Shown here: positions 1,484 through 24,325 of the stretch, one piece after another
Position numbering within the stretch: position 1 is the stretch's first letter
Layout: the number at the start of each line of letters is the position of its first letter
DNA from: a virus
Taxonomy: Duplodnaviria > Caudoviricetes
IMG/VR virus record: IMGVR_UViG_3300024232_000036
Span: 1-38,777 of that record
Strand: one strand, 5' to 3'
Length of the DNA: 38,777 nt
Notes under the pieces: model-generated
Told to the model about the DNA's origin: nothing
Database searches by the model: none
Seen by the model: only the letters and a program-made list of their open reading frames with translations
Position numbers and translations under genes: made by a program

Positions 1484-2466
1484 TATTTCTCCTTGCCGAC
1501 ATCGCTTCCTCTAGGCCGCTTAGATTTCCAAGGCGGCGTCGCGGCGTAGACGGCAGCCAAGGACTCCAGGTCTTTTGCTAGCTCGGAGTACCGAGCGTGA
1601 TGCAAGAGCATAGTGTCTTCGATTGGCCCTGTCGGGTAGATACCGTAGTGGGCGAGCCAAAAAGTGTCGTATTGGCCGTTCTGGAAGATTTTCGGAACCG
1701 GCCGCTGAAGCTGCTTACGGAGCCAGGCCCATGCAGCTATTTCTTCCTCTCGTGTTTCCCAGTAGTGATACCCAGGCTTTGAGCGATCAACGAAAGGGAT
1801 GACGATACCGAGGCTCGGACGAGAGGCCAATCCAACCATAGTAATGAGCTTGGACCCAGTTGTTTCAATGTCACAGGCGATGTAGCTGGCGGACTCGAGA
1901 TAGTATTCCTCGAAGAGCAAGAGGTCTGTGAGGGTCGGTTCGAGCCAGAGCGTTTTATGTGTGTGCCGCACCTCAGGAAAGGCACTCTCACGTTTCGCCT
2001 TGATGATATCCACCTGGACATTAGCGCGGGCAGTCGCTCCCTGGAAGATAGAGAGGAGGGTCGGAAGCACCTTAACTGGACGGAGAGTGCCCAGTAAACA
2101 GTGACCCCGGATCGATGAGACCCCCGTGAGGCCCGTAAGGGCCCGAAGCGCTGTGTTACCCATAGCGAGTATAAGATTTGGCTTCGCCGCATCGATCTCC
2201 TTTCCGAGGCGTTGTAACGCCGCCTCTCTTATTTCGTCGTTCTCCCAGAGGCGAGAGATGACGTCTCCAGGAGGTCTTTCATTGAATACGTTTGAAAGAG
2301 AAAGATCGGCTCTCTTGAGCCCAACATTTCTGAAAAGCTGAAATAACGCATGGCCGTATCGGCCCGTAAGGGGCGAACCAGTGACTTCTTCTGTTTCTGC
2401 AAATGCTTCTCCTACGACCATCAGGGGCGCGCCTGGCACAAGGCTGTCGGACCACCGACCAGGCAT
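1483..2466 (-). CDS. Uracil-DNA-glycosylase (family 4)-like domain fused to the N-terminal part of a 3'-5' exonuclease (first piece of split PolA)
   Basis: LMVVGEAF, SNV...RPP and PNLILAMGNTAL (UDG4-like), then ACDIET (ExoI), QNGQYD (ExoII) and DTMLLHH. No ExoIII motif in this ORF. Confidence 0.88.
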   Translation of the reverse strand: MPGRWSDSLVPGAPLMVVGEAFAETEEVTGSPLTGRYGHALFQLFRNVGLKRADLSLSNVFNERPPGDVISRLWENDEIREAALQRLGKEIDAAKPNLILAMGNTALRALTGLTGVSSIRGHCLLGTLRPVKVLPTLLSIFQGATARANVQVDIIKAKRESAFPEVRHTHKTLWLEPTLTDLLLFEEYYLESASYIACDIETTGSKLITMVGLASRPSLGIVIPFVDRSKPGYHYWETREEEIAAWAWLRKQLQRPVPKIFQNGQYDTFWLAHYGIYPTGPIEDTMLLHHARYSELAKDLESLAAVYAATPPWKSKRPRGSDVGKEK

Positions 2467-3725
2467 TAGACAACTCCATCGATTATGGAATCTGTGGCCA
2501 TCCGGCGTCTGACGGTGTGGTGAGAGAGGTCCACGTACTTTTGCTCAGTATCAAGGCCAACAGCGCGTCTTGCTTTGAGGCTAACCGCCGCTGCAATGGA
2601 AGTGCCGCTTCCACAAGTCGGGTCAAGGAGGTCTGTGTTCTCATCGACCAGCATGGAGAGGAAATGTTCGACAACCGGGAGGGGCTTTTCAGAAATGTGC
2701 TCGCTGTCAGCAGAGCCCCTAGGGTGAGAGATAGAATTGGAAACAGGCCTAACGATAAAACGGTCTCCCCATGTGATGAAGAGGGCCATTTCATAAGTCC
2801 GCCTGGGCCCTCTTCTGGGGTCCGGTATAATACCTGCCAGGTCTGATTTGTGCCAGATAAGCGGGTACTCATCTACAACGAACCCAGGCTCGGACCTAAA
2901 CCGCCCAGCCGCAGCGGCTCGATGCTTTGCTGCGGTCCAGAATACCATGTGCCCAGAAGGGGCGAGGATCTTAGGCCGTGCGATAAGTAGAGTGTCGAGG
3001 AGCTGAAAGAATAGTTCAGGTCGGTCATCATATCGATCTGACTGACGAGAAGCCTGCATTTGAGCGTCGTGCATAGACAGCCCGTAAGGGAAGTCACAGT
3101 GGAGCACATTGAAGGGTCTCCCATCGTAAGCTATAGCCCAGGAAAGGAAGTCAACACAGTATAGCTCGAAGGGCGCCTTCGGTGCCACTGGCCCCATTGG
3201 CATAAGCTGATCGGTGATAGCAGCATCAATATCCCGCGCCTGCCGGCGCGCATACTGGTTATAGATTGCCTTGGCTGAGGTTTCCTTCAGAAGGCCAGGG
3301 TTCTTCTTGATCTCCTGCTCGACAGTCAGCATCCGGCTAACAAAGGCGGGCGTGACATTCAGGGCGGCTGCTGTACGAGCGGCCGTCCAGTCCGGCTGAG
3401 TGGCCGTATAGGCGTCGTGGAGCTGCCGGATCGCTGTTACCTGATCTTTCCAGTCGAGGTCCGACCGCTTCAGGTTCTCTTCCAGCTCGAGTATCTTTCG
3501 TTCTTCTGTTGGAAGGTCCTCCCAGAGGGTGACTTTGATTTCTTCCAGCCCGAGCGCCTTGTGCGCCTCGAGGCGCCGCTCGCCAGCAATCAGCCGCCCG
3601 CTCCGATCCACGACGATAGGGTGCAACAGGCCGTTCCGCTTGATGCTCGCCTTCAGTTCTTCGAGCTGGGCCGGATCGATAGCAGAGCGCTGTCGGTCCT
3701 CGACCTTAATGTCGGATATCCGCAT
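2466..3725 (-). CDS. ParB-like N-terminal domain fused to an N6/N4 DNA methyltransferase (beta-type motif order)
   Basis: GLLHPIVV...LIAGERRL...ELEENLKR (ParB), then CDFPY (motif IV), HISEKP and LLDPTCGSGTS (motif I). Confidence 0.88.
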   Translation of the reverse strand: MRISDIKVEDRQRSAIDPAQLEELKASIKRNGLLHPIVVDRSGRLIAGERRLEAHKALGLEEIKVTLWEDLPTEERKILELEENLKRSDLDWKDQVTAIRQLHDAYTATQPDWTAARTAAALNVTPAFVSRMLTVEQEIKKNPGLLKETSAKAIYNQYARRQARDIDAAITDQLMPMGPVAPKAPFELYCVDFLSWAIAYDGRPFNVLHCDFPYGLSMHDAQMQASRQSDRYDDRPELFFQLLDTLLIARPKILAPSGHMVFWTAAKHRAAAAGRFRSEPGFVVDEYPLIWHKSDLAGIIPDPRRGPRRTYEMALFITWGDRFIVRPVSNSISHPRGSADSEHISEKPLPVVEHFLSMLVDENTDLLDPTCGSGTSIAAAVSLKARRAVGLDTEQKYVDLSHHTVRRRMATDSIIDGVV

Positions 3726-15177: not shown

Positions 15178-15215
15178 GTTTCGGCCTGTCAGTTGGGTTT
15201 CGGCCTGTCAACCGG
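15178..15215 (-). repeat. Tandem TGACAGGCCGAAAC motif (2 copies)
   Basis: CCGGTTGACAGGCCGAAACCCAACTGACAGGCCGAAAC on the minus strand. Confidence 0.7.
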
Positions 15216-15538: not shown

Positions 15539-15562
15539 GCTGGGTTTCGGCCTGTCAGCCGG
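15539..15562 (-). repeat. CCGGCTGACAGGCCGAAACCCAGC motif
   Basis: Intergenic; matches 15194-15215 and 19440-19473. Confidence 0.7.
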
Positions 15563-18491: not shown

Positions 18492-18519
18492 TTGACTTTT
18501 GATGCGAGCCTGGTAGAAT
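18492..18519 (+). promoter_or_regulatory. Rightward sigma70-type promoter before the late arm
   Basis: TTGACT-16 bp-TAGAAT with an extended TG. Confidence 0.65.
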
Positions 18520-18547: not shown

Positions 18548-19426
18548 ATGAGTGTGGAAATGGGCAATGACGCAGCGAAGCTCGCCCCGATGCGGCCCGG
18601 CCCGCAGATAGAGGTGACGCTAGGCCCTGGTGGGCTGATCAGCGGAGGCATGACTAACGAGCCTTCCTTCCGGCATGCCGGCATCGCGGCCGCTGAAGAT
18701 ACTGTGTTCGAGGGGGCCACGCCCCACGGGGATGACGTTTCCGTAGAGGATGTGAGGGAACTGACTGAGGAAGAGGTGGTGAATGCGCCCGGCCCGCATG
18801 AGAAGAACAGCGGATCGACTGGCCCGGCAATCAGAGCACTTAGATATCAGCACCATGAAATTGCTCGACTGCTTGCAGCAGGTACAAAGCCTTCGGAGAT
18901 CGCCCGCATCCTCGACGTCACAGTCCCGACAATCGCCCGGCTCATCGCCACCCCGCAGTTTCAAGATCTGCTGCATGGATATACCACTGCCAGAGACCAC
19001 GCCGCGATTGACATTGGAGTACGTCTCAAAGTCGCCGGCGCAATCGCGCTCGACAAGCTCACAGAGAAGCTCGAAGGGACGCCGGGCGTAGCGATGCCGG
19101 CAGACTGGCTGACCAAGACTGCCCTTGGCCTAGTAGATCGGGCCGGACATGCGCCTGTGCAGAGGACCTTCCATGCCTCAGTCAACACCGCAATCAGCCC
19201 TGCAGACATTCGAGCAATGCGGATGGAGCGGGCCGCGCGTACAGTCGTGTTGGCTCCGCATACCGGACCGGATGGCTCCCTCAAGGCCGATCATCGGCCG
19301 GATGACTCCTTCTCAGGCCCGAGGCTTGAGGCACGAGAGGAAGGTCTGGGAGTATCTGTGCAGGATACAGCCGACGCTATGGCCCGAGATGATGCTGCTG
19401 CGCAACCCGTGGTTCCAGAACCTTAG
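18548..19426 (+). CDS. HTH-containing protein, probable terminase small subunit
   Basis: HHEIARLLAAGTKPSEIARILDVTVPTIARL HTH followed by long helices and LVDRAGH; first gene of the late arm. Confidence 0.6.
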   Translation: MSVEMGNDAAKLAPMRPGPQIEVTLGPGGLISGGMTNEPSFRHAGIAAAEDTVFEGATPHGDDVSVEDVRELTEEEVVNAPGPHEKNSGSTGPAIRALRYQHHEIARLLAAGTKPSEIARILDVTVPTIARLIATPQFQDLLHGYTTARDHAAIDIGVRLKVAGAIALDKLTEKLEGTPGVAMPADWLTKTALGLVDRAGHAPVQRTFHASVNTAISPADIRAMRMERAARTVVLAPHTGPDGSLKADHRPDDSFSGPRLEAREEGLGVSVQDTADAMARDDAAAQPVVPEP

Positions 19427-20354
19427 GTTCCCGCCGTTACCGGCTGACAGGCCGAGAGCAGCAGAAACCCAGCCAGAGGAGTTGAAAGATGCCCTTTCCG
19501 AAGAAGGCGAGCCGGTCGGGCGGAGGCCCGAAGCGGACGACGAAGCGGGTCGCACCTTCGGCCCCGATGCCGGTTCCAGTGGGCGGCCCACCGATCCCGC
19601 CGCTGGACCCGAGTATGGTGCCGGTACCGGGGGTAGCGCCGGTCGGCCCGCCTCCTGGCCCGCCGATGCCAGGGATGCCAGGGATGCCGGTCGGCCGAGC
19701 GATCAAGGGCCTTCGGTAGAAAAGGCGCACCCAACGCGGAGCTTGGACGATGCCGAGCAAGCCCGAACTGGAAAACCTCCTAACCGAAGTCTCAGCTCTC
19801 AAGCCGACGAACCAGAAAGCCTTTCTACGTCAACAGGAGCTTATCCGCGCGGTACGTCTACAACTGGGCTTGCCGGCCGGTCAAGCTCCGGGCCGGGTGC
19901 GGACGGTCGTTCCACAGGCGAAGCCAAGGAGTTGAGAGATGCCGCTCAAGAAATCTCCCTCGAAGAAAGCAGTCAGCGAGAACATCCGGACAGAAATCAA
20001 GGCCGGCAAGCCGCAGAAGCAGGCCGTCGCGATCGCGTTGGAAACTCAGCGGAGAGCGGGTGGTGGGAAGCAGCGGCCAAGGGGGCGGTGATCGGCCCGA
20101 GGGCAAGCCCGGACCTGGTAGGGATATGCCGGGACTGGGGCCTGATCGTGGAGGCGAAGCTGTCAGTCACCCCGCAGGCTGAGGAACAGCTGAAGCGGTA
20201 CAAAGAAATTTGTGACAACGTCTGGCCTGGCCGGCGCTGGGTGCTAGTCCAGGCAGCAAGGAACTGGCGGGCGGGCGTGCCCTACTGGGTGGTCGGTCCG
20301 GGCAGTTGGGAAAGAGCGAGTAGGATGGTGGCCTGGCATTTCCAGGCAGCGTAA
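19272..20354 (+). CDS. PD-(D/E)xK nuclease-like ORF with a long internal insert; the C-terminal half may also start at GTG 20088
   Basis: N-part RGLRHERKVWEYL...NPWF; C-part SPDLVG...LIVEAKL...AEEQLKRY. The frame is open from 19149; the start is uncertain. Confidence 0.6.
   Translation: MAPSRPIIGRMTPSQARGLRHERKVWEYLCRIQPTLWPEMMLLRNPWFQNLRFPPLPADRPRAAETQPEELKDALSEEGEPVGRRPEADDEAGRTFGPDAGSSGRPTDPAAGPEYGAGTGGSAGRPASWPADARDARDAGRPSDQGPSVEKAHPTRSLDDAEQARTGKPPNRSLSSQADEPESLSTSTGAYPRGTSTTGLAGRSSSGPGADGRSTGEAKELRDAAQEISLEESSQREHPDRNQGRQAAEAGRRDRVGNSAESGWWEAAAKGAVIGPRASPDLVGICRDWGLIVEAKLSVTPQAEEQLKRYKEICDNVWPGRRWVLVQAARNWRAGVPYWVVGPGSWERASRMVAWHFQAA
19440..19473 (+). repeat. CCGGCTGACAGGCCG...AAACCCAGC motif with a 10-nt insertion
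   Basis: Matches 15539-15562 on the opposite strand. Confidence 0.6.
19489..19719 (+). CDS. Small basic, Pro-rich protein (nested gene 1)
   Basis: GAGGAG RBS; MPFPKKASRSGGGPKR... Confidence 0.65.
   Translation: MPFPKKASRSGGGPKRTTKRVAPSAPMPVPVGGPPIPPLDPSMVPVPGVAPVGPPPGPPMPGMPGMPVGRAIKGLR
19750..19935 (+). CDS. Small hypothetical protein (nested gene 2)
   Basis: MPSKPELENLLTEV...; amphipathic helices. Confidence 0.55.
   Translation: MPSKPELENLLTEVSALKPTNQKAFLRQQELIRAVRLQLGLPAGQAPGRVRTVVPQAKPRS
19939..20091 (+). CDS. Small basic conserved phage protein, 50 aa (nested gene 3)
   Basis: MPLKKSPSKKAVSENIRTEIKAGKPQKQAVAIAL..., a pattern I recognise near phage head genes; AAGGAG RBS. Confidence 0.8.
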   Translation: MPLKKSPSKKAVSENIRTEIKAGKPQKQAVAIALETQRRAGGGKQRPRGR

Positions 20355-20369
20355 ACAAGGAGCTGAAGA

Positions 20370-20936
20370 ATGAAGCCAATGATCTGTATGGTGATCCCAC
20401 TCGGCGAAGCCCCTGGATACCCGGACCAGGGACTTCCTGGTGGCCCGCCAGGCATCTGGCCGTCGCCAGGGCACCCGGCTCACCCGATCGCACCAGGCGG
20501 CCAGCCCCCTGGTATTTGGCCAAGTCCTGGGCACCCGGATCAGGGTCTTCCGCCTGGTGCAGGCCATCCGTCGCATCCGATCGCTCTGCCCCCGATGCCT
20601 GTGCATCCCGAGCATCCGATTGCGGGGGTAGGCGGAACGCCAGAGCACCCGATCTATACGCCGCCGCAGCCCGGGCACCCAAGCAATCCGATCTACATTC
20701 CTGGATCGCCAGAGCACCCGATCGCGCTGCCGCCCGGCACAGTGTGGCCGCCGCTCCCGCCTGACGGCGGCTCGGGCGTGGTGGTCGTGCTTGCGTGGGT
20801 ACCAGGTGTCGGCTACCGCTGGGTGGTGATCGATACCTCGCAGCAGCCGGACCAGGGCCTGCCGGGAGCGCCGCCAGCGCCGGATCAGGGACTTCCGCAG
20901 CCGCAGCCACCGACTGCACAGCCGAGGCGCCGGTAA
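20370..20936 (+). CDS. Pro/Gly/His repeat protein
   Basis: AAGGAG RBS; repeats PDQGLP, PPGIWPSPGHP and P(E/S/A)HPI. Confidence 0.8.
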   Translation: MKPMICMVIPLGEAPGYPDQGLPGGPPGIWPSPGHPAHPIAPGGQPPGIWPSPGHPDQGLPPGAGHPSHPIALPPMPVHPEHPIAGVGGTPEHPIYTPPQPGHPSNPIYIPGSPEHPIALPPGTVWPPLPPDGGSGVVVVLAWVPGVGYRWVVIDTSQQPDQGLPGAPPAPDQGLPQPQPPTAQPRRR

Positions 20937-20991: not shown

Positions 20992-21666
20992 ATGAAGAGG
21001 CTTCTGTTTGGTGCGATTGCTGCACTTGGACTGGTGCTTGGCCAGCCAGCTGTAGCCGACCCGATCATCACGTTCGGTCAGACGGCCAACGTCAACACTA
21101 TCACCGGCACGGCGTCCGCCAGCGGCACCGTCTGGGGCAACGACAACATCGCTGTTTCGATCAGCCAGATCGCGGCCGGCGTCGTTACTCCAGTCGCGGC
21201 CTTTCTCGACGTGCATGCTACGTCGATCAGCGGTGCTGTGTCGGTCGGCGGGGCTATCGTTCAGCACTTTTCGGGTTCGTTCTCGATCAACAGCCTTGCC
21301 AACAACACCGGCACTAATTACCTCAGCGGCCTGTTTTCGGACGCGGCGATCACCGCGAACGGAGCCAGTGCCATTGCGGTGTTCGCTCCTACGGCCAGCT
21401 TCGTTTCGGACGTCATCACTACGCTGGGCCTGCCTCGTGCCATCGCGTTCTCGTTCAGCAACGTGACGCCGCCGGTCAGCCTGGCGGCCTGCACGACTTG
21501 CGACGGCGGCGGAGCGGGGCAGACCATCGCCTCGTTCACGGCAGCTGTGGCCGGCGTCGCGTCGGCTGAGGTGCCGGAGCCAGCAACACTCGCCCTGTTT
21601 GGCGGCTCGCTGCTCGGCCTCGGTATCCTGCGCCGGCGGAAGAAGGAGGATCAACTCGCGGCCTAA
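20992..21666 (+). CDS. PEP-CTERM sorting-domain surface protein
   Basis: N-terminal signal peptide (MKRLLFG...PAVA|DP), Ser/Thr/Ala-rich body, VPEPATLALFGGSLLGLGILRRRKK. Confidence 0.92.
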   Translation: MKRLLFGAIAALGLVLGQPAVADPIITFGQTANVNTITGTASASGTVWGNDNIAVSISQIAAGVVTPVAAFLDVHATSISGAVSVGGAIVQHFSGSFSINSLANNTGTNYLSGLFSDAAITANGASAIAVFAPTASFVSDVITTLGLPRAIAFSFSNVTPPVSLAACTTCDGGGAGQTIASFTAAVAGVASAEVPEPATLALFGGSLLGLGILRRRKKEDQLAA

Positions 21667-21724: not shown

Positions 21725-21758
21725 ACCCTCACCTCCGGTTTCTCTAGAGGAGGTGAAC

Positions 21759-22268
21759 ATGGCAGAGACTACTGTACCGCCCCGGCCCGGCCAGCCCGGC
21801 TCACCGGCTCCGGCCCAGCCACGACAAGGCCCGCAGACCAGTTCCAGCCCGCTGATCAATCGCGGCCCGCTGGAGCCACAGCGCGCAGCGGGGTACGACC
21901 CGGAAACGGGAACGTATCTGGAACCGGAGCAGCCGGAAGATATTCTGGAGGCCCGGAAGCGCGTTGCGGAGTGGGACTGGTCGAAGGAGCCACGCGACTG
22001 GTCTAGCGTCCCGACGTACTTTACGCCGGAGGCGCCACCTCCGGAGCCGCGTGTAGGCGGCTACACATCGAAGTCGGGAGAAACGATCACTTTCGCTGGC
22101 ACGACGGATGAGACTCGGGCACTGGCAGCACTGAAAGTGCTGAAGAATATGGGCTATACGGAGGACCCGGCGGATCTGCCAATCCCACCACCAGCCGGCA
22201 CGTCGGCGACTTCGCTTCAGGCAGGGATGACGACGAACCGGGCCACTGGCGTGCGGAGTGGTCCGTAG
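21759..22268 (+). CDS. Hypothetical Pro-rich protein
   Basis: ATG at 21759 follows GAGGAGGTGA. Confidence 0.72.
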   Translation: MAETTVPPRPGQPGSPAPAQPRQGPQTSSSPLINRGPLEPQRAAGYDPETGTYLEPEQPEDILEARKRVAEWDWSKEPRDWSSVPTYFTPEAPPPEPRVGGYTSKSGETITFAGTTDETRALAALKVLKNMGYTEDPADLPIPPPAGTSATSLQAGMTTNRATGVRSGP

Positions 22269-22270
22269 GC

Positions 22271-22672
22271 ATGGGCGGAGGTTTACCTGGGCTTGGGGGG
22301 CCGACTGCCCCCCAAGTTCCGCTGGACCAGCTACTCGCTGGTCTGGTGACAGCTCCACCGGCCGTTACGGCTCCACAAGTGTTCTCGGGCGGTGACCCGA
22401 ACACCTCGATGCAGATAGCTAACCAGGTGACGCAGCCGCCTGGACCGCCTGGGCCACCGACCGGCCCGACGATGCAGGCTGGAGGCCCGGCACCGGGAGC
22501 ACCGGCTGCACCGCAAGCACCTGGCGCACCGTTGCCTCCGCAGGCGAGCATGCCGGATCACATGCAGCCCTCGAGATTCACCTTTGGCGCGCATCAGCTG
22601 CAGCCAGCGCTAGCCGGGCTTGGCGCGAAACAATTCACTCCGCCGATCCAGCCGACGCCGTTCGGGATGTAG
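22271..22672 (+). CDS. Pro/Gly/Gln-rich low-complexity protein
   Basis: Tiles the operon; GGAG RBS. Confidence 0.65.
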   Translation: MGGGLPGLGGPTAPQVPLDQLLAGLVTAPPAVTAPQVFSGGDPNTSMQIANQVTQPPGPPGPPTGPTMQAGGPAPGAPAAPQAPGAPLPPQASMPDHMQPSRFTFGAHQLQPALAGLGAKQFTPPIQPTPFGM

Positions 22673-22708: not shown

Positions 22709-24325
22709 ATGAGTGCTAAGATTTACGTCCCTGTAGAACATTTAGCGGGCTTGGAAGTGAAGGACCGTGTGCAGCGGTGCTTCGAGGACCCGGTCCTTTT
22801 CTGCCGGTACTACCTCGAGCATATGTTCCCTCTGCCTATGCCAGCGGTTCACCGGGGGCTCTTAGCGATTTTAACGCGGCAGACTCGGTTCCTCGAGGTC
22901 TACGGGGAAATCGACTGGATCTGTGATAACTTTGTGATGGAGAGGGACGGCAAAACCTATCGGATCTTTGAGAGGGGTGAGGACTATGTGCTACGCATGT
23001 ACCTTGGGACTCATACCCTTGTGCTTATGCCAAGAGGCTTCTCTAAAACTACTCTGTGCGGTATTGCTGACTCCCTTTATGATATATGCTATCAGCTTGT
23101 CCAGCTTTCCGCGTATGTCAGCCACGCCGCCCCACACGCAGAAACACAGCTTGAGAATGTTAAAAGAGAACTCGAGGCGAATACTCGCATCCTCCACGAC
23201 TTCGGCATCCTTAAGCCAGAGCGTAGCACCGGGAAGCATTGGTCTGTTGACATCTTTGAAACCACGAACTCCTGTGCTATGGTCGCGAGAGGTGCGGGAG
23301 CGCAGATCAGAGGTCTTAACCTTCAAGGAATACGACCACAGAAAGTGAAAGTGGATGACGTAGAGGACAGGGAGAGCGTTTCTACAGAGGAACAGCGGAA
23401 GAAAATGAGGGTCTGGGGCTATGGAGATCTGCTGCCATGCCTCCCAGCGCTGGATCCTTTAGCTGCTATGGTGGTTATTGGCACTGTTTTGCACCCAGCC
23501 AGTCTTTTAATGACCTGGGCGAACGACCCGAAATTCAGTGTGATAAGGTTTGGGGCCCTGGATCGGGCTGGGAAGCCGATCTGGCCCGAGAATATGTCGG
23601 TAGAACGGCTCGAAGCGGAGAAGCGAAGCTTCACTCGGGCCGGAGAGCTGTCCACATTCTACTTAGAATATCATAATCAGGTCCGAGCAGAGGAAACTCA
23701 GATCTTCCAGCAGCGGTTTTTCCGCTACGGGCCGCCCACGCCGGAAGATGGCTCCCTGATCTGGGCAGTTTACTGTGATCCGGCGATCTCTGAGGCGAAA
23801 CGCGCTGACAGTTCGGTGGTCTATGCCGTTGGAATGTCCCTCAAGACAGGAAGACTCTTCGTTCCGGCCCCCTGGGCGCAACGAGGAGCGAAGCCAAGAG
23901 ATATCATCGACGCATTCTTCAATTATAGCAAGCGTTACGGTGCAACTCATCACGGAGTGGAGGCAAATCAGTATCAGGCGGCGTTGGTACACCTCATTAG
24001 GGCGGAAATGTTCAAGAAAAAGCACTACTTCGACATTCTACCCATCATACATGGCTCTAAAACATCGAAGTACACGCGGATTAAGGGCGTTTTGCAGCCT
24101 CGATACAGCAACGGGTATATCCAGCACTACGTACCGATCCCGGAGCTTGAAAGTCAGCTCCTGGACTTCCCATCAGGGGTGCACGACGATCATCCTGACG
24201 GTTTGGCCGGGGCTATCGCGCTCCTCGACCCTGTTGCGGGGGCTGGAGCGGGCAATGAGGACGAAGTTCAAGAAGATCCTGTAGATACAGATGTCTTTAA
24301 TGAGGGTTGGAGGGTAGCACCATGA
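22709..24325 (+). CDS. terL: Terminase large subunit
   Basis: Walker A-like PRGFSKTT, QIRG, Walker B VDDVED, coupling motif IGT, nuclease motifs YCDPA and HDDHPD. Confidence 0.93.
   Translation: MSAKIYVPVEHLAGLEVKDRVQRCFEDPVLFCRYYLEHMFPLPMPAVHRGLLAILTRQTRFLEVYGEIDWICDNFVMERDGKTYRIFERGEDYVLRMYLGTHTLVLMPRGFSKTTLCGIADSLYDICYQLVQLSAYVSHAAPHAETQLENVKRELEANTRILHDFGILKPERSTGKHWSVDIFETTNSCAMVARGAGAQIRGLNLQGIRPQKVKVDDVEDRESVSTEEQRKKMRVWGYGDLLPCLPALDPLAAMVVIGTVLHPASLLMTWANDPKFSVIRFGALDRAGKPIWPENMSVERLEAEKRSFTRAGELSTFYLEYHNQVRAEETQIFQQRFFRYGPPTPEDGSLIWAVYCDPAISEAKRADSSVVYAVGMSLKTGRLFVPAPWAQRGAKPRDIIDAFFNYSKRYGATHHGVEANQYQAALVHLIRAEMFKKKHYFDILPIIHGSKTSKYTRIKGVLQPRYSNGYIQHYVPIPELESQLLDFPSGVHDDHPDGLAGAIALLDPVAGAGAGNEDEVQEDPVDTDVFNEGWRVAP

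Follow-up and report, generated by a model that had tools for sequence, protein, structure and literature searches.

How can a phage make a compact enzyme from a gene that is interrupted by several other genes? This question is raised by a locus in the IMG/VR virus record IMGVR_UViG_3300024232_000036 (Duplodnaviria; Caudoviricetes), of which we analyzed the stretch of 38,777 nucleotides (nt) starting at position 1, called the window in what follows. A first-pass annotation, made from the sequence alone, had described a PD-(D/E)xK nuclease frame whose N-part overlaps the tail of a gene for a small terminase (TerS)-like protein and whose C-part lies behind an insert of ~660 nt with three small genes. 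It had proposed three routes of expression, namely a dual-coded long protein, splicing or ribosome bypassing, and a separately made C-half. The frame is indeed free of stops from 19137 to the TAA that ends at 20354 (405 codons), the overlap with the TerS-like gene is confirmed at 254 nt, and three nested open reading frames (ORFs) occupy the +1 frame (Table 1). The insert exists as well, with its extent corrected to 681 nt. Among the three routes we favor the dual-coded protein, since the frame is kept open in all seven variants of the gene that we compared: ribosomes quite probably read through the insert and make one nuclease of ~393 amino acids (aa) with a disordered loop.

Two halves of a predicted nuclease

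A search of 1.84 billion representatives returned 11 matches, seven of which are compact proteins of 135–176 aa that combine a G-x-x-Y-E helix, an LLxxPW strand, PD and ExK. These contiguous homologs span both halves of the window frame, as had been anticipated for halves that belong together. A profile built from the seven compact homologs only matches the window frame twice and in order (Table 1). The same ordered double match flanks the insert in all seven variants, with no other match below E 5 among 1721 six-frame segments. Relatives keep the N-part along with the open frame and the N-part matches the compact-homolog profile, so that its proposed assignment to the C-half holds. The catalytic residues P, D, E and K are invariant across alignment A3, and the G..x-E of the first helix, invariant in 7/7 compact homologs, aligns to GLRHE of the window. 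In the C-part, PD at 20109, EAK at 20151 and the following QLKRY are found where they had been annotated. On this evidence, the two halves are by sequence two parts of one compact protein family.

Family databases give few further clues. The compact homologs touch Pfam NERD below the cut-off and have no match in a PHROG search; the C-half has a weak match to phrog_24315 only. A sequence search of solved structures gave a best E of 0.22 (Cas4). No homologs of 719–2050 aa were found, a null result that is weak evidence.

The halves are also predicted to fold as one restriction-like domain. An AlphaFold2 model, computed from a 17-row alignment for the residues from 19272 onward, has predicted local distance difference test (pLDDT) values mostly above 88 in the halves and mostly below 50 in the insert, and places a helix at model residues 13–36. 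Its structural match to NucS (Z 10.0, root-mean-square deviation 3.5) covers 103 residues over the model range 21–360 and therefore draws on both halves, since 103 aligned residues exceed what the C-half alone supplies. Further structural matches are McrC (Z 9.2), Can2 (9.1) and Hjc (6.7–6.8, below NucS and in the common range), and the top rows for this predicted model are restriction-like folds. The model predicts that the insert replaces a hairpin turn of about 10–14 residues between the PW strand and PD. In line with this, 12–14 residues separate W and PD in the compact proteins, 10 in P0004, 36 in P0003, 77 in P0006 and 162–282 in the nested variants; the close homolog P0004 reads PWFQ, six residues, CSPD.

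An outer frame open across the insert

C-half locus scans yielded 7 viral and 10 metagenome matches, all found through C-half homology and not through openness of the frame. We left out one-type duplicates (L002–L005, L016–L018, L023–L026), truncated contigs (L006, L007, L012, L021) and the window's own contig (L022), and compared seven distinct whole-gene variants: the window, L001, L013, L014, L015, L019 and L020. The nuclease frame is open in 7/7, which bears out the proposed conservation of the frame in related phages. The inserts measure 681, 699, 471, 663, 510, 477 and 831 nt, respectively, all multiples of three, and every spacer is in phase, whether before the first nested gene (64, 82, 46, 79 and 451 nt), in the middle (30, 54, 45, 87, 27 and 9 nt) or between genes 2 and 3 (3 and 12 nt). 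The chance that six free length differences are all multiples of three is about 1/700, a guide only, as the variants form two shallow subclades. In a tree of the C-half the seven nested variants group at 88/91 within the starred clade, together with P0003, P0004, P0006 and P0007, and the order inside this clade is left open by the tree. One additional contig (run X8) carries net changes of +375 and −225 nt; it is probably of the L020 type and hence not independent. DNA loci of P0006 and P0003 were not found in viral contigs, nor were prophage copies among 185,579 genomes.

An assembly error does not account for the layout, because the separate assemblies of the relatives have it too. The window stretch is best matched by soil metagenome runs, with no RNA run listed among those that contain it (which says nothing about expression), and positions 19000–20497 are covered without any difference by three overlapping contigs of run X2, which may come from the same campaign as the source.

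The first-pass annotation had cautioned that openness is weak evidence in this frame. This is true for a single short gene: free-standing relatives of nested gene 3 are stop-free over 40 codons at 21 of 80 loci, and at 15 of the 28 with a GC content of at least 0.58. The whole frame behaves differently. In the same shifted frame, 26 ordinary genes of the window contain 282 stops in 7863 codons, or one per 28 codons; their longest stop-free run is 130 codons, and none of 2752 windows of 220 codons is open. When the window's nested genes were re-drawn synonymously (5000 draws), the mean was 5.2 stops and only 0.24% of the draws had none; for the other six variants the zero-stop share was 0.18–4.2%. 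Openness of the whole frame is thus more than chance.

The pattern of substitutions changes along the gene. Over 19272–19424 we count 26 synonymous versus 6 replacement states in the nuclease frame and 2 versus 29 in the TerS frame; the C-half has 54 versus 16. Over the gene 3 region the nested frame has 31 synonymous versus 5 replacement states, and the nuclease frame 1 versus 39, without a stop. Judged by these counts, both halves are under selection in the nuclease frame, and within the insert it is the nested frame that is selected. In addition, within the window's nested genes T in third codon position occurs at 0/28 sites where it would create an outer-frame stop versus 20/117 of the other sites (p 0.0097), and at 0/72 versus 51/306 when the contexts, which are non-independent, are pooled; ordinary genes have 187/812. 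Codon choice thus indicates that stop-making codons are avoided in the outer frame.

These observations bear on the view that the nuclease is dead or dying and that its frame is open only because the nested genes use GC-rich codons. The many open GC-rich loci among the free-standing gene 3 relatives fit this view, but none of the comparable windows is open, T is avoided specifically at stop-making sites, all spacers are in phase, and both halves are under purifying selection with their catalytic residues intact. We regard this as the least probable of the four alternatives.

According to the read-through model, ribosomes would read the nuclease frame straight through the 681-nt insert, the enzyme would fold around a long disordered loop, and the nested genes would be translated from their own ribosome-binding sites. 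The loop would then serve as spare intergenic space. Because the TerS-like stop sits at the 5′ edge of the insert in 7/7 variants (in the window, TAG 19424–19426 is the exact edge), the insert site would be the first point past the overlap where incoming DNA leaves both proteins intact. There, genes that bring their own leaders could be gained, lost or swapped, provided that phase is kept and no stop is added.

Removal of the loop after translation, by intein-like splicing or proteolysis, would leave a rejoined or two-chain nuclease. It needs the same open frame and is compatible with all the frame evidence; moreover, a disordered loop of ~227 residues would be exposed to proteases, and in L020 an HNH-like domain lies in frame, as with inteins. 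However, the insert drifts freely in the nuclease frame, as seen over gene 3, the junction residue that follows NL can be R, S or E, a His-Asn plus C/S/T end is lacking, and no intein (Hint) domain was matched in Pfam searches. The sequence makes self-splicing of the loop unlikely, and we consider protein-level removal as a whole improbable; clipping, for instance by a host protease, would be the chief variant of the read-through model.

The insert might also be removed from the RNA as an intron or be skipped by ribosome bypassing, as in T4 gene 60. One insert carries an HNH gene at its 5′ end, as do mobile introns and the MobA bypass element (10.1101/2022.08.31.505936), and the phage-gene insertion with an HNH-type nuclease in one lineage is a feature shared with T4 gene 60/MobA. 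An open, in-phase insert would be needless for either route, yet it is kept in 7/7 variants. The leader sequences at the 5′ edge are wholly different between variants and fold no better than shuffles, the insert ends pair no better than shuffles (44–167 of 200 as good), and there is neither a stop at the take-off site nor a conserved matching word at the two ends. Unlike group I and group II introns, the insert has no Rfam match at E ≤ 1 and no conserved fold or end pairing. Unlike the T4 gene 60/MobA case, it has neither a stop or hungry codon at its entry nor matching take-off and landing words, and it is long, open and in phase. As the open frame is needed for neither route and signals for them were not found, this second proposal of the first-pass annotation appears very unlikely.

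More doubtful still is that the C-half is made alone from GTG 20088, coupled to the stop of gene 3, in which case the N-part would be a relic or act as a separate partner. In its favor, 4/7 variants have the GTGA overlap and gene callers often call the 88-aa ORF. Nevertheless, GTG 20088, the start annotated for a separate C-half, is missing in 3/7 variants (L013, L014 and L015), and the L013 insert has no in-frame ATG, GTG or TTG anywhere. Furthermore, purifying selection acts on the N-part, which does not end in a separate stop, and the fold's first helix and strand are absent from the C-half.

Several points weigh against the preferred reading, one read-through nuclease. The seven variants fall into two shallow subclades of 80–100% nucleotide identity and are not seven independent trials; the test for stop-making T is non-significant in 4/7 variants taken singly (p 0.07–0.20), and one short gene is commonly open in the nuclease frame by chance. 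The N-part match alone is modest (independent E-value, iE, about 0.001–0.003), and no Pfam family reaches the cut-off for the long protein. The AlphaFold2 alignment had already paired the halves, the predicted template modeling score (pTM) of the model is 0.44 and the first 33 residues were left out; Foldseek with either model gave no match at E ≤ 0.001 (best E 0.015). Finally, the loops of P0003, P0004 and P0006 were read from protein only, and their N-terminal helices are unseen.

Start site, nested genes and cargo turnover

ATG 19149, the position from which the first-pass annotation ran the frame, occurs in only 5/7 variants. Only 3 of 17 TerS codons vary over 19223–19271, compared with 31 of 58 in the part upstream of it (p 0.008), a difference that suggests a second constraint on the DNA before 19272. 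Because of this double constraint, and because AGGA and ATG are both kept in 7/7 variants, ATG 19173 is the favored start; it would give a protein of 393 aa with 166 aa outside the insert, the size of the compact homologs. Starts at 19272 or 19302 are less favored.

Table 1. Positions of the nuclease gene, its nested genes and adjoining features in the window.
Feature	Positions	Strand	Remarks
Sigma-70-like promoter candidate, extended −10	18492..18519	+	10/12 consensus match only; 1 found vs 0.6 expected in shuffles; upstream of the module
Helix-turn-helix (HTH) protein, likely small terminase (TerS-like)	18560..19426	+	Pfam HTH_23 E 6.6e-5, below cut-off
AGGA-type Shine-Dalgarno (SD), 6-nt spacer, ATG 19173	19161..19175	+	AGGA and ATG in 7/7 variants
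Outer gene, predicted PD-(D/E)xK nuclease, 393 aa, 227-codon loop insert	19173..20354	+	
Conserved N-part: Glu helix (codon 19335–19337) and LLxxPW strand	19223..19424	+	Profile positions 14–56, iE 0.0027
Insert, 681 nt, no stop in nuclease frame, predicted disordered	19425..20105	+	
Phage gene-leader hairpin motif ahead of nested gene 1	19440..19455	+	Also ahead of left-arm genes
Nested gene 1, 76 aa, Pro/Gly/Met-rich, conserved end PVGRAIKGLR, strong SD	19489..19719	+	In 7/7 variants
Nested gene 2, 61 aa, accessory	19750..19935	+	In 3/7 variants, two versions 50% identical
Nested gene 3, 50 aa, basic, phrog_2423, strong SD	19939..20091	+	In 7/7 variants
Conserved C-part: PD 20109–20114, E-x-K 20151–20159, QxxxY helix	20106..20354	+	Profile positions 66–149, iE 7.7e-21

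The leaders of nested genes 1, 2 and 3 read AGAGGAG, CGGAG and AAGGAG. A hairpin at the start of the insert had been annotated as repeated, which is correct, with further copies on the minus strand at 15182, 15201 and 15548 (stretches 15182–15212 and 15548–15559), just upstream of SD and ATG. It is no marker of the insert, since its core is missing from 4/7 inserts. At two mismatches the motif has 14 matches, mildly above chance (3/100 shuffles). As the motif also precedes other genes, gene 1 and its leader both look ordinary. For the same reason, and given the inserts that lack the core, we rejected the hairpin as a splicing or recoding signal. It is oriented with transcription in both genome arms and is tandemly duplicated in L001 (L001:3727) and L019, and could possibly be a regulatory or recombination site.

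Nested gene 1 has no Pfam or PHROG match, and nested gene 2 has no family match and none in cultured phages. Gene 3 matches phrog_2423 (E 5.6e-21, positions 1–45 of 52), a widespread family with 345 phage records and about 6000 IMG/VR stretches. None of 80 loci of free-standing gene 3 adjoins this nuclease family within the 3 kb fetched per side, which identifies gene 3 as a normally free-standing gene that is nested here.

The first-pass annotation had pictured a three-gene cassette received in a loop without loss of frame. Insertion in frame stands, whereas a fixed three-gene unit does not, as the inserts hold two or three genes, with one inferred in P0006 and none fitting P0004. L014 and L015 have identical flanks (500 nt upstream, 249 nt downstream) and differ by gene 2, in register. 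Gene 2 of the window and that of L014 share 50% identity when read in the nested frame (E 5e-11); in the nuclease frame they are unrelated, and both are stop-free. The P0006 loop can in +1 spell MPKK...MPP...G[RK]AIKGL, which would fit gene 1 alone. No empty allele occurs among the seven close variants; the short-loop homolog P0004 stands just outside them, and gene 2 and the HNH-like domain are patchy.

The HNH-like domain (phrog_826, E 1.3e-10) of L020 and P0022 is encoded in the nuclease frame without a separate stop, and the two other frames of this L020-type insert contain 14 and 6 stops. At L020:890–1300, and in P0022, a zinc finger accompanies it, with its own ATG 13 nt past the TerS stop. 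Its C-V-E-V-S-H departs from the usual stretch C-V-N-P-x-H, and the domain may be degenerate. An HNH as founder of the insert is a less parsimonious candidate, given that L020 lies inside the window's subclade (97/95) and P0006 has no HNH, with deeper forks unsettled in the tree.

Taken together, gene 1 likely came first and gene 3 next, and gene 2 and the in-frame HNH late and sporadically. The series of 0, 1, 2 and 3 genes would be a parsimony reading, with the branching order within the clade not settled. Whether the tolerant nuclease loop is a reusable landing pad, on which a mini-operon turns over and recruits a homing nuclease while selection scrubs outer-frame stops, we judge an evenly balanced question.

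Genes of phrog_2423 were also seen inside other long frames. At L037:852–983 such a gene lies wholly within the open frame L037:2–1789 (595 codons), in the same phase as in the window. In translation this outer frame looks like a genuine large protein; it contains an HExxH motif and had no Pfam or PHROG match; it is a possible second, unrelated case of nesting. At L073:830–950 another copy lies under the tail of a 248-aa gene (L073:202–966), both ending together; the outer gene is TerS-like by eye and had no family match, and at a GC content of 0.36 chance openness is less likely. With these two unrelated outer genes, landing-pad nesting may be general.

Genomic setting and comparison with known systems

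The window is a linear virus record of 38.8 kb that is 79% complete. It has SU10-type portal and capsid genes and a large terminase gene (TerL) at 22709–24325; replication genes make up the left arm and lie on the minus strand. The TerS-like gene resembles a 'putative small terminase' of Caulobacter phage Kuura (E 4.6e-7), and its start is the Met used in relatives. In that Kuura protein (L031:750–2045), a single frame contains both TerS and the compact nuclease; where the two meet, the sequence resembles a TerS tail after a frameshift, and this may be a one-base error or a real fusion. The nuclease gene is annotated under at least five different calls (68, 88, 256–264, 354 and 443 aa).

In 3/3 cultured phages found, the compact homolog lies between a TerS-like or HTH gene and, within 0–2 genes, a TerL homolog that matches the window TerL (E 1e-33 to 9e-78); TerL follows directly in two of them and after two small genes in Kuura. 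Nucleases linked to terminases are known, such as terminase-linked HNH nucleases and T4 endonuclease VII. Judging by gene position alone, we tentatively suggest, at somewhat less than even odds, a role of the nuclease in DNA packaging, in which it would trim or debranch DNA for the terminase.

Several further genes of the window are of note. Those at 20370–20936 and 21753–22672, between the nuclease and TerL, are like nested gene 1 Pro/Gly-rich and of low complexity; the run between the nuclease and TerL has PDQGLP and HPxHPI repeats and its gene order is kept in relatives. The gene at 20992–21666, also kept in relatives, has a signal-peptide-like start and a PEP-CTERM sorting motif above the Pfam cut-off, which hints at a host with an exosortase system. 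On the minus strand, 1483–2466 and 3–1145 hold a uracil-DNA glycosylase domain fused to a 3′-5′ exonuclease domain and, as a separate gene, a family A polymerase domain. Positions 2466–3725 encode a ParB-methyltransferase fusion.

The helix Glu, PD and ExK of the nuclease are common to NucS/EndoMS, McrC, Can1/Can2, Hjc and the compact family, whose label 'putative endonuclease I' in Mel-JY34 and VS-ABTNL-3 is the depositors' only. With the compact family of these two phages it also shares its place beside terminase genes, and differs in having 162–282 residues between W and PD in the nested variants instead of 10–14.

Classical nested phage genes, lambda Rz1 in Rz and phiX174 E in D, lie on the same strand as their outer genes and arose by overprinting of constrained coding sequence. 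The window case is alike in that whole genes lie inside another on the same strand. In contrast, pre-existing genes were apparently inserted here, and their outer-frame reading is unconstrained.

A closer parallel comes from mycobacteriophage methylases, in which the ShiLan domain and the Pacc40 gp60 insert are HNH genes hidden out of frame (PMC11855218). ShiLan shares with our case an insert that the host frame crosses without a stop, an ORF of its own in a different frame, the absence of intron or intein signs, and a predicted harmless loop of the host protein. Its cargo, however, is one selfish endonuclease without a detectable SD. The inserts here instead contain two to three genes without a nuclease match (50–76 aa in the window), so that the homing-nuclease feature of ShiLan is absent from them; they have SD-like leaders, and one comes from a widespread free-standing family. 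Gene number varies among close relatives, the only HNH (L020, P0022) is in the host frame, and the host gene, unlike that of ShiLan, overlaps its upstream neighbor by 254 nt.

The layout has also been built synthetically by overlapping alternate-frame insertion (OAFI), with both genes functional, which indicates that it is viable (10.1101/2024.11.07.622342). Common to both are an inner gene with its own ribosome-binding site, outer-frame stops cleared, and a flexible loop of the outer gene. In OAFI, inner genes were engineered singly into the +3 frame of tetA (10.1101/2024.11.07.622342), whereas the window case is natural, multi-gene, in another phase and subject to evolutionary turnover. No published case of natural multi-gene, non-nuclease cargo was found in a search that covered few subscription papers; the ShiLan repository and supplements and the OAFI supplement could list some. 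As far as these sources go, the layout itself is already published, and what appears new here is that ordinary genes are gained, lost and swapped.

The locus would thus show how overlapping genes can arise when ready-made genes are inserted, not through overprinting and not solely through selfish nucleases. If such nesting is general, gene callers may split many such host genes and hide their passengers. The living variants form a natural series, from 0 through about 1 and 2 to 3 nested genes, in which one can test how much junk in its loop a folded enzyme can bear and how ribosomes in two frames share one mRNA. The series also makes testable whether a passenger is stabilized by nesting in a needed gene, a point raised for engineered constructs by the OAFI authors (10.1101/2024.11.07.622342). 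There is perhaps an even chance that the insert in this phage nuclease is a natural, multi-gene form of OAFI.

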